Positions 44,901 through 47,900 of a stretch of DNA of 64,000 bases are shown here, one piece after another (positions within the stretch are counted from its first letter, which is position 1; every line of letters begins with the position of its first letter). The DNA is from Escherichia coli O127:H6 str. E2348/69 (lineage in GTDB: Bacteria; Pseudomonadota; Gammaproteobacteria; Enterobacterales; Enterobacteriaceae), in the NCBI RefSeq assembly GCF_000026545.1, contig NC_011601.1, one strand, 5' to 3'. The position numbers are program-made.

Positions 44901-47900
44901 CAGACCAGACTTGGTCGGGATTTCCGGATGCGCTTCTTTAAAGCGTTCCAGCAGCTTAAGCGACCAGTTGTAATCTGCACCAGGCCGTACCTGACGGTAA
45001 ATACGCGGTACGTTTTCCAGGTTATGGTTGAACACATCTGGTGGCGTTGCAGTCAGAATATCCAGAGCACGATCCATACGACCACGGAAATCCGGCACCA
45101 GAGTTTCAATTTTGATTTGCGGGCTTTTTTCCCGAATGGCAGTAATGCAATCCGCAAAGTGCTGGGCACCGCCATCGCGCAGGTCATCACGGTCAACGGA
45201 GGTGATAACCACATAACGCAGCGCCATATCGGCAATGGTCTGCGCCAGTTTCACTGGTTCATTGGCATCAGGAGCTACCGGGCGACCGTGGGCAACGTCA
45301 CAGAACGGGCAACGGCGGGTACAAATAGCGCCGAGGATCATAAACGTTGCTGTGCCGTGGTTAAAGCATTCCGCCAGGTTAGGGCAGGAGGCTTCCTCGC
45401 AGACAGAATGCAGGCCATTTTTGCGCATTGCGGCTTTGATGCCCTGGATACGTGTAGAGTCCGCTGGAAGCTTGATTTTCATCCATTCCGGCTTGCGCAG
45501 CAGGGCTTCGCGCTCTGTTGCCACGTTTTTAACCGGGATAAGGGCCATCTTATCGGCATCGCGGTATTTAACACCGCGTTCCATCACAATGGGTTTACTC
45601 ATAGCGTGCGTGTTCCAGTTGCGAATTACGAAGAAAAGCGTTTCAATTCAATAGATTGTTGTAATTATCAACTATTTTTGAATTAACGACTGGCAGTATA
45701 TCATTGAAACGGACCTGAAAGCAGCCAAAGCGGTCGCGAAAATGTAAAATTGTTGTTGGATTGTGCCATTTTATCGTTCTGCGCTGTGATCTGGCTGTAA
45801 CAATACTTTTTCAAAATGCATTACGGATAACATCTATGGTCCTGTGCAAAACATGTTATCGGTGATGAGATCGGTTTGAAACTGACTGAGTTGGTTTTCC
45901 ACGCCGCCGATGGGCGGGTTGCGCAGTAAAAGCTGTGGATAGTGAGTTTTAATCGCCCGATAGATGACAGGAAGGACCAGGGCCCCGACCGAGGGGGGGC
46001 AGATTAAGCACTTTCGCTGCATTAACGATTCCTTTATGGACATATGCAACTTCAAAATAGTCAGAAGGGTAAGATCAATATTTCGTAAGGTTGTAAATAT
46101 TTGTGGTTTACCTTCTGACTACTTTCTGCTTAAACAGGGTTCAATTTTATTATTACTATCCACGCACTTACTCCAATTTTATTCATGAAAAAATAATATT
46201 TAAAAAAATTACAATAATCTTATGTCTAATTGGGACGGAACGCTTTTGCTCACCATGGTCAATCATTTCAATGAGTTAATCAATTAGGTGGGCTACGGAG
46301 CAAGGCGTAGCATCGCATTTCTGCAAGTGATAAAGAAAATATACAAACGCGAAGGAGATGTAAAGCATTAGCAGGTATTATGAGTAATGACCCAGTGTAA
46401 ATTGGGCCATTGATGTATGGAATTAAGCGGTAATATACTCGAAGTCAGGATTGTTTAGTAGCGCTAAAATATTTTCCAGTAAACGTGGTGCAATATTATT
46501 AGTCGTCGCTTCGGGTTTCCATTGTGATATTTTAGCCATTTCCATTCCTGCATACCCACAAGGATTAATACGTAAAAATGGTGAAAGATCCATATTGACG
46601 TTTAATGCCAGACCGTGGAATGAACAACCGCGTCGAATACGTAAACCCAGTGAGCAAATTTTCTTTTCCCCGACATAGACACCAGGCGCGTCAGCCCGAG
46701 GATGCGCTTCTATACCCAGTTCAGCCAGGGTATTCACCACTGTTTGCTCAAGCAAGGTCACCAGTTCACGCACACCGAGTTTACGGCGTTTCAGGTTAAG
46801 CAACACATACATCACCTGTTGCCCCGGCCCGTGATAAGTCACCTGCCCACCGCGATCGCTCTGGATCACCGGAATATCACCCGGCATTAAAATATGCTCC
46901 GCCTTTCCTGCCTGCCCTTGGGTGAATACCGGATAGTGCTCGACCAGCCAGATTTCATCAAGGGTACTATCATCGCGGGTATCGGTGAATTCATGCATAG
47001 CCTGGGAGATTGGCTCGTAAGGCTGAAGACCGAGCTGGCGGACAAGAATTTTATCCTGATACAAAACGGCATCTCCGTGGAGAATGAGTAAAAGTGGGGG
47101 AAAAGTATATCACAGCGAGGAGAGGGGAGTTACCCGACCAGGAGCCGGGTAACGGAGAAGCGAGTTACAGAACCATGCGGACAATATCGATTTTGCCCAG
47201 TTCTTCATACAGTGTTTCAACCTGCTCGATATGAGTGGCGTTGATAGTGATAGATACCGAGTGGTAGTTGCCTTTGCTGCTTGGTTTTACCGTTGGGGTG
47301 TAGTCACCTGGCGCATGGCGCTGTACCACTTCAACCACCTGATCAACCAGCTCAGGTAACGCCTGCCCCATAACTTTGTAAGTAAAAGGAGTAGGGAATT
47401 CAAGCAGTTCGTTAAGTTTGGTTTTCATGTCAGCTCCGGCGTAACGTAATTAAATAGCAACTCCCGCCAGAAGGCGGGAGTTTTTTACTGATGCTTAGTA
47501 TATGGGGACGGAAATTACACTTTCAAGTGTTCAATTTTTAACCAAACCAGTGATGGAACATTAATTTAATGTAATCAATGATTTTGCCGAAGAAGTTACC
47601 TTCCGGGATTTCTTGCAGCACAACCAGCGGGCGTTGTTCGATCGTTTTGCCATCAAGCTGGAAGTTGATAGTACCGACGACCTGATTCTTTTGCAGCGGC
47701 GCATGCAATTCACTGCTGTTCAGCACATAGCTGGCTTTCAGATCTTTCATGCGACCACGCGGAATGGTCAGGTACACGTCTTTATCAACCCCTAACGAAG
47801 CGCGATCAGAATCACCAAACCAAACCGGTTCAGAGGCGAACTCTTTACCTACTTTCAGTGGGTTAACGGTTTCGAAGAAACGGAAGCCCCAGGTTAGCAA

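Follow-up and report, generated by a model that had tools for sequence, protein, structure and literature searches.

Between the genes for lipoyl synthase (lipA) and octanoyltransferase (lipB), Escherichia coli K-12 carries an intact gene for a LysR-type regulator, ybeF, and the corresponding spacer of strain E2348/69 raises the question of what has become of that gene. An initial interpretation of the 64-kb stretch of E2348/69 DNA analyzed here (the window), made from the sequence alone, placed an 820-bp spacer at 45603-46422, took K-12 to have an intact ybeF of about 317 aa, and proposed that E2348/69 holds a deleted or decayed copy. The coordinates of lipA and lipB bear out the first point, with the spacer occupying 45603..46422, exactly 820 bp, and the view of K-12 proved accurate as well: in K-12 (ER3413), ybeF measures 954 bp (317 aa) and lies in a spacer of 1420 bp, which is 600 bp longer than that of E2348/69. 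Two findings had been named beforehand on which the proposal could fail, a complete ybeF frame in this spacer and a K-12 spacer of equal length. No such frame exists, the lengths of 1420 versus 820 bp likewise favor decay, and the endpoints of the missing segments could be mapped. The lipA-lipB spacer of E2348/69 is almost certainly a non-functional unitary pseudogene remnant of ybeF, and this remnant accounts for the 600 bp by which the spacer falls short of that in K-12.

The locus and the surviving pieces of ybeF

A 1420-bp query from the window, covering the spacer with flanking stretches of lipA and lipB, matches the E2348/69 chromosome at 100% identity. The gene order, ybeD-lipB-(ybeF remnant)-lipA-tatE, is unchanged from strains whose ybeF is intact, and the remnant is found at the orthologous locus of the YbeF family, between lipB and lipA and on the same strand. 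A tblastn search with intact YbeF against the spacer gives a match far above chance (E = 6e-44), which, together with direct translation, resolves into four collinear minus-strand pieces of ybeF in two frames; the pieces are out of register, and no complete ybeF frame is present. The flanking genes, the intergenic regions and the four pieces (A to D) are given below, with the basis of each assignment in brackets.

44637..45602, minus strand: lipA, lipoyl synthase, intact, downstream flank of the remnant (321-aa ORF; RefSeq WP_000042632.1)
45603..45810, unstranded: lipA-ybeF intergenic region, 208 bp, outside both deletions (alignment to K-12)
45811..45843, minus strand: piece D, ybeF codons 308-317 and the TGA stop (alignments, tblastn, substitution list)
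45844..45992, minus strand: piece C, ybeF codons 123-175, start of the LysR substrate-binding domain (tblastn)
45994..46053, minus strand: piece B, ybeF codons 37-56, FEVAYVHKGIVNAAKVLNLP, first part of the helix-turn-helix (HTH) (tblastn, second HSP)
46058..46163, minus strand: piece A, ybeF codons 1-36, with the native GTG start at 46163..46161 (tblastn, translation)
46164..46422, unstranded: ybeF-lipB intergenic region of 259 bp, once the promoter region of ybeF, still present but diverged (alignment to K-12)
46423..47064, minus strand: lipB, octanoyltransferase, intact, upstream flank of the remnant (213-aa ORF; RefSeq WP_000284027.1)

Pieces A and C share one frame, relative to which piece B is shifted, and piece D, whose peptide RTIDVIRNAF corresponds to GVIDVIRNAF at K-12 residues 308-317, shares the frame of piece B and not that of piece C. 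The sequence-only reading had reported neither an HTH-encoding N-terminal region nor a C-terminal continuation in this spacer, and it was right in that none exists in frame, but codons 1-56 and 308-317 persist out of frame. Intact YbeF has two Pfam domains, HTH_1 (PF00126, residues 31-89) and LysR_substrate (PF03466, residues 116-316), and neither survives whole: of the sequence leading into and encoding HTH_1 only codons 1-56 are left, with a 1-bp frameshift between them and a TAG at codon 15, and of PF03466 only residues 123-175 and 308-317 are encoded, in separate frames, which amounts to 53 + 10 of the approximately 200 residues of the effector domain. With its HTH truncated and frameshifted and its linker helix gone, the remnant is unable to yield a regulator, and the expected consequence in E2348/69 is the absence of YbeF regulation.

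Compared with a K-12-like allele, lipA differs at 5/966 positions and lipB at 9/642, all of the differences being synonymous, and the lipA-ybeF intergenic region (45603..45810), which is presumed to house the lipA-proximal promoter, has 1 substitution in 208 bp and 0 gaps relative to K-12 (99.5% identical). Lipoate synthesis should be unaffected, because the decay has spared lipA, lipB and the lipA-proximal intergenic region. The ybeF-lipB intergenic region (46164..46422) carries 15/258 substitutions relative to K-12 (94.2% identical); this former promoter region is apparently drifting at the rate of the pseudogene, and the region upstream of lipA is conserved. An Rfam scan of the spacer returned 0 matches even at E <= 1, and a scan for consensus promoters and terminators returned no terminator and three promoter-like sites, no excess over shuffled sequence; a promoter-like hexamer pair at 46204..46176(-) is likewise of a type no commoner than in shuffled sequence.

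Elsewhere in the window, a second gene is inactivated: wzz(fepE), encoding the regulator of very long O-antigen chain length (5321..6454(+)), is interrupted in frame by a stop at codon 78 and is a RefSeq pseudogene with an internal stop. Rfam matches above the gathering score comprise the sroC sRNA (63536..63698(-)), the rnk leader (29410..29518(-)), a cspA-type thermoregulator upstream of cspE (42487..42935(+)) and STnc70 (25514..25607(+)), all of which are expected in this region of E. coli.

Lesions, reading frames and pseudogene status

The spacer was aligned to three intact alleles (K-12, AHS8C65RI and 2017-02-2CC) and to the shortened alleles of other strains. Relative to the intact alleles its gaps number exactly three (397, 204 and 1 bp), and these are listed here with the nonsense codon and the open reading frame (ORF) that runs across part of the remnant.

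45844..45848, unstranded: junction of the 397-bp deletion, between 45843 and 45844, with one GTGCA copy left (alignment)
45989..45999, unstranded: junction of the 204-bp deletion, inside CCGAGGGGGGG (alignment)
46054..46057, unstranded: A4 run, one base short of the A5 run of intact alleles, a 1-bp loss that throws the HTH region out of frame (alignment)
46119..46121, minus strand: nonsense codon 15, TCG to TAG (translation, substitution list)
45834..46055, minus strand: 73-codon ORF with a TTG start, containing PPSVGALVLPVIYRAIKTHYPQLLL (ORF translation)

The 397-bp segment corresponds to K-12 spacer positions 242..638, approximately codons 176-307, and is flanked in intact alleles by two GTGCA direct repeats (5 bp). 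The 204-bp segment, approximately codons 57-124, has a 9-bp direct repeat, CCGAGGGGG, on either side in the intermediate allele of ST131 type, and the G run at the resulting junction counts 7 in E2348/69 and 6 in ST95-type strains. Homopolymer lengths vary across the alleles between A4 and A5 and among G5, G6 and G7, and the TAG at codon 15 is restricted to E2348/69 among the 16 alleles sampled. The remnant carries, in other words, the disabling lesions that characterize a unitary pseudogene (the 397-bp and 204-bp deletions, the 1-bp frameshift and the nonsense codon), and its frame is not conserved among the strains that share the deletions: within the 820-bp class of alleles the reading frame through the remnant takes three configurations, G7, G6 and TAG, with the native GTG of the G7 alleles (83972, O18:H1, AREA_492, DS566-1) opening an ORF of 109 codons and the G6 alleles (IHE3034, MS20653, B20123) following a frame other than that of the G7 alleles.

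The suspicion of a deleted or decayed copy is supported by these lesions and by the RefSeq/PGAP annotation, which marks 45843..46163(-), with piece A at its upstream (N-terminal) end, as a YbeF family pseudogene described as 'frameshifted; internal stop; incomplete; missing C-terminus'. The ybeF remnant of E2348/69 is an ordinary pseudogene, known already from that annotation. The label 'LysR family transcriptional regulator' in 83972, AREA_492 and B20123 was considered as a sign of an intact variant gene and was rejected; it denotes the same pseudogene under another product name.

The pattern of substitution agrees with this status. Relative to K-12, the remnant has 20/353 substitutions (94.3% identity), divided into 13 non-synonymous changes, among which the stop is counted, and 7 synonymous ones, and lipA and lipB together have 14/1608 relative to the K-12-like allele, all synonymous; the contrast, drawn from small numbers, is supportive of relaxed selection on the remnant relative to lipA/lipB, and the remnant appears to be evolving at close to a neutral rate.

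The 73-codon minus-strand ORF had been noticed in the initial interpretation as resembling the start of a LysR effector domain, and the resemblance is real: at 45834..46055, its residues 21-71 match YbeF 123-175. Its residues 1-20 are HTH-coding DNA read out of frame, and its last two codons and stop are supplied from beyond the junction of the 397-bp deletion; it is an accidental open frame spanning the 204-bp deletion junction. Against the NCBIfam equivalog model NF008554, for which membership as a functional YbeF needs a full-length match at the cut-off of 277 bits, K-12 YbeF scores 609.8 bits over 1-317, and the E2348/69 ORF falls below the cut-off with 75.1 bits (E = 4.5e-21) at profile positions 117-175 only. 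This specific model is the only one to pick up the 73-aa product, for which a Pfam scan gave no match even at E <= 10, the generic LysR_substrate model needing a longer fragment; nor did Pfam give a domain in the 109-aa ORF of the sister strains.

Distribution and probable history of the deletions

In a sample of 5,426 complete E. coli genomes, a match to at least 80% of the intact spacer is found in 4330, and about 80% of the genomes have a ybeF of intact length. The 397-bp segment is present in 4373/5426 genomes and absent from 1053, and its deletion junction is spanned contiguously in 1049 (~19%); the 204-bp segment is present in 5034/5426 and absent from 392, and its junction is spanned contiguously in 389 (~7%). 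The agreement of the absence counts (1053, 392) with the junction counts (1049, 389) indicates essentially one junction per deletion across the population. The junction counts come from asymmetric queries of 100 bp, run with a strict E-value threshold, and are consistent with the presence/absence counts; symmetric 60-bp junction queries were dropped, with counts (490 and 10 genomes) that were misleading because SNPs near the junctions deprived them of an exact 28-mer seed and low-complexity filtering probably masked the poly-G run.

About 12% of the genomes have the 397-bp deletion alone, as exemplified by EC958/ST131, WP4-S17, AGR6128 and KP63 (all four have spacers of 1024 bp), and about 7% have both deletions, as do E2348/69, UTI89, IHE3034, 83972, O18:H1, MS20653, DS566-1 and B20123, whose spacers measure 819-820 bp. 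Among the deleted alleles sampled, the 397-bp junction has the same position in 12/12, the A4 run occurs in 11/12 (FCI5 has A5), and the 204-bp deletion is always accompanied by the 397-bp deletion. The strains with deleted alleles (ST131, ST95, ST73 and E2348/69) belong, we assume, to phylogroup B2. The 397-bp (~19%) and nested 204-bp (~7%) junctions are usable as simple lineage markers.

In Salmonella, Klebsiella and Enterobacter a full-length ybeF occupies the position between lipB and lipA (PMC4398509), and the long form is therefore ancestral. From this starting point we infer the following order of events, which rests on the 16 sampled alleles, the aggregate counts and assumed phylogroups: an ancestor of the ST131/ST95/ST73/E2348/69 lineage would have lost 397 bp between two GTGCA repeats, dropped one A from the A5 run and gained one G in the G run; a sub-lineage would next have lost 204 bp between two CCGAGGGGG repeats; and G7 would afterwards have become G6 in some lineages, with TCG changing to TAG at codon 15 in E2348/69. 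The direct repeats at both junctions and the changes in homopolymer length make replication slippage, or else illegitimate recombination involving the short direct repeats, the probable mechanism of the deletions, the 5-bp repeat being weak support by itself. Decay of pseudogenes through microhomology deletions and homopolymer slippage is textbook knowledge.

Several further alleles deserve description in their own right. FCI5 has an 816-bp spacer, in which an extra small deletion at the 397-bp junction fuses ...MFCT to IDVIRNAF in frame, and this allele shows ongoing, variable decay of the remnant. EC958 (ST131; 541..1065 of the allele sequence) and three other alleles of the intermediate class remain open from the native GTG for about 177 codons. 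Some 20 HTH codons of this ORF lie between a -1 frameshift (A5>A4) and a compensating +1 shift (G5T>G7); they are scrambled, from FEAVYVHKGIVNAAKVLNLAP to LKLHMSIKESLMQRKCLICP, before the frame is restored, and the ORF produced by this compensated double frameshift still terminates at the 397-bp deletion. The spacer match is split around an IS element in NZ_CP075374.1 (strain no107; ISApl1, IS30-like) and around IS1 in NZ_AP040205.1 (NR3736), and these would be independent inactivations if the insertion interrupts ybeF.

Alternative readings and comparison with known systems

The population data show only what appears to be one ancestral deletion inherited by about 19% of genomes, a pattern that would fit selection or hitch-hiking alike. 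Selection is the substance of one alternative to neutral decay, according to which the loss of ybeF in the B2 lineage was pathoadaptive and acted through lrhA/FlhDC-dependent control of motility. Deletion of ybeF in K-12, for which no direct target was identified, lowers lrhA approximately 3.5-fold and raises the FlhDC iModulon (PMC9068703), and the deletion allele is found in about 19% of complete genomes, major extraintestinal and EPEC lineages among them; however, a single ancestral event passed down within a successful clade produces this distribution with no selection at all, no independent recurrent inactivation is seen apart from the occasional IS insertions in other lineages, no direct YbeF targets are known, and the intact paralogue citR may make ybeF redundant. 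We regard this alternative as unlikely. To go further and call the loss an adaptive, lineage-defining event in a B2-type ancestor (of ST131, ST95, ST73 and EPEC1) that rewired lrhA/FlhDC, or, more remotely, to cast the ORF as a small interfering protein, is to make a claim that we consider quite improbable.

A second alternative treats the 73-codon ORF, or its 109-codon form in the sister strains, as a new functional small protein that might, for example, interfere with CitR or other LysR-type regulators. The frame is open over 73 codons in E2348/69, and in the G7 alleles over 109 codons from the native GTG, behind a retained ybeF upstream region; against this, the frame is not conserved among strains with the same deletions (G6 versus G7, and TAG in E2348/69), the substitutions are mostly non-synonymous, the TTG start has no Shine-Dalgarno motif visible upstream, and the product has no detectable domain, retaining 53 of about 200 effector residues without the linker helix or the HTH. 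Such a protein is very hard to credit. That the short spacer is an artefact of assembly or sequencing of the E2348/69 genome, a general possibility to which the A4 and G7 runs lend only the weight of an error-prone type of feature, can be dismissed with near certainty, given that the two junctions recur in 389 and 1049 complete genomes whose assemblies are independent, and in several separate O127:H6/E2348/69-type assemblies.

The remnant places E2348/69, like about a fifth of sequenced E. coli, among the strains without the poorly characterized regulator YbeF, and caution is warranted when results on YbeF or FlhDC regulation in K-12 are carried over to EPEC/ExPEC strains. A full-text literature search for ybeF, in a set that the E2348/69 genome paper lies outside, found no discussion of its loss in B2 strains or in E2348/69.

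Compared with K-12 ybeF (b0629), the remnant has the same position between lipB and lipA and the same strand, and its surviving pieces are collinear with the K-12 gene at 94% DNA identity; it differs in that approximately 63% of the coding sequence (601/954 bp) is deleted and the rest is distributed over two frames with a stop, and in having no intact HTH_1 or LysR_substrate domain. It is identical with the RefSeq/PGAP pseudogene H4J01_RS18215 of E2348/69, which has equivalents in UTI89, IHE3034, 83972 and EC958. The PGAP span omits the last 10 codons and stop (45811..45843) beyond the 397-bp deletion, and the annotation carries neither the deletion endpoints nor the population distribution, which are absent also from the searchable papers but are routine in nature.

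CitR (YbdO), encoded approximately 22 kb away in the window, is a LysR-type paralogue approximately 30% identical to YbeF; YbeF scores 183 bits against the CitR model. The gene citR (ybdO) adjoins ybdNM, and dpiBA and the citCDEFXGT citrate-lyase cluster are also intact. In K-12, knocking out ybeF or citR affects lrhA and FlhDC in much the same way (PMC9068703). In E2348/69, citR is intact at 23527..24429(-), whereas ybeF is destroyed, and redundancy with CitR may lie behind the dispensability of ybeF.
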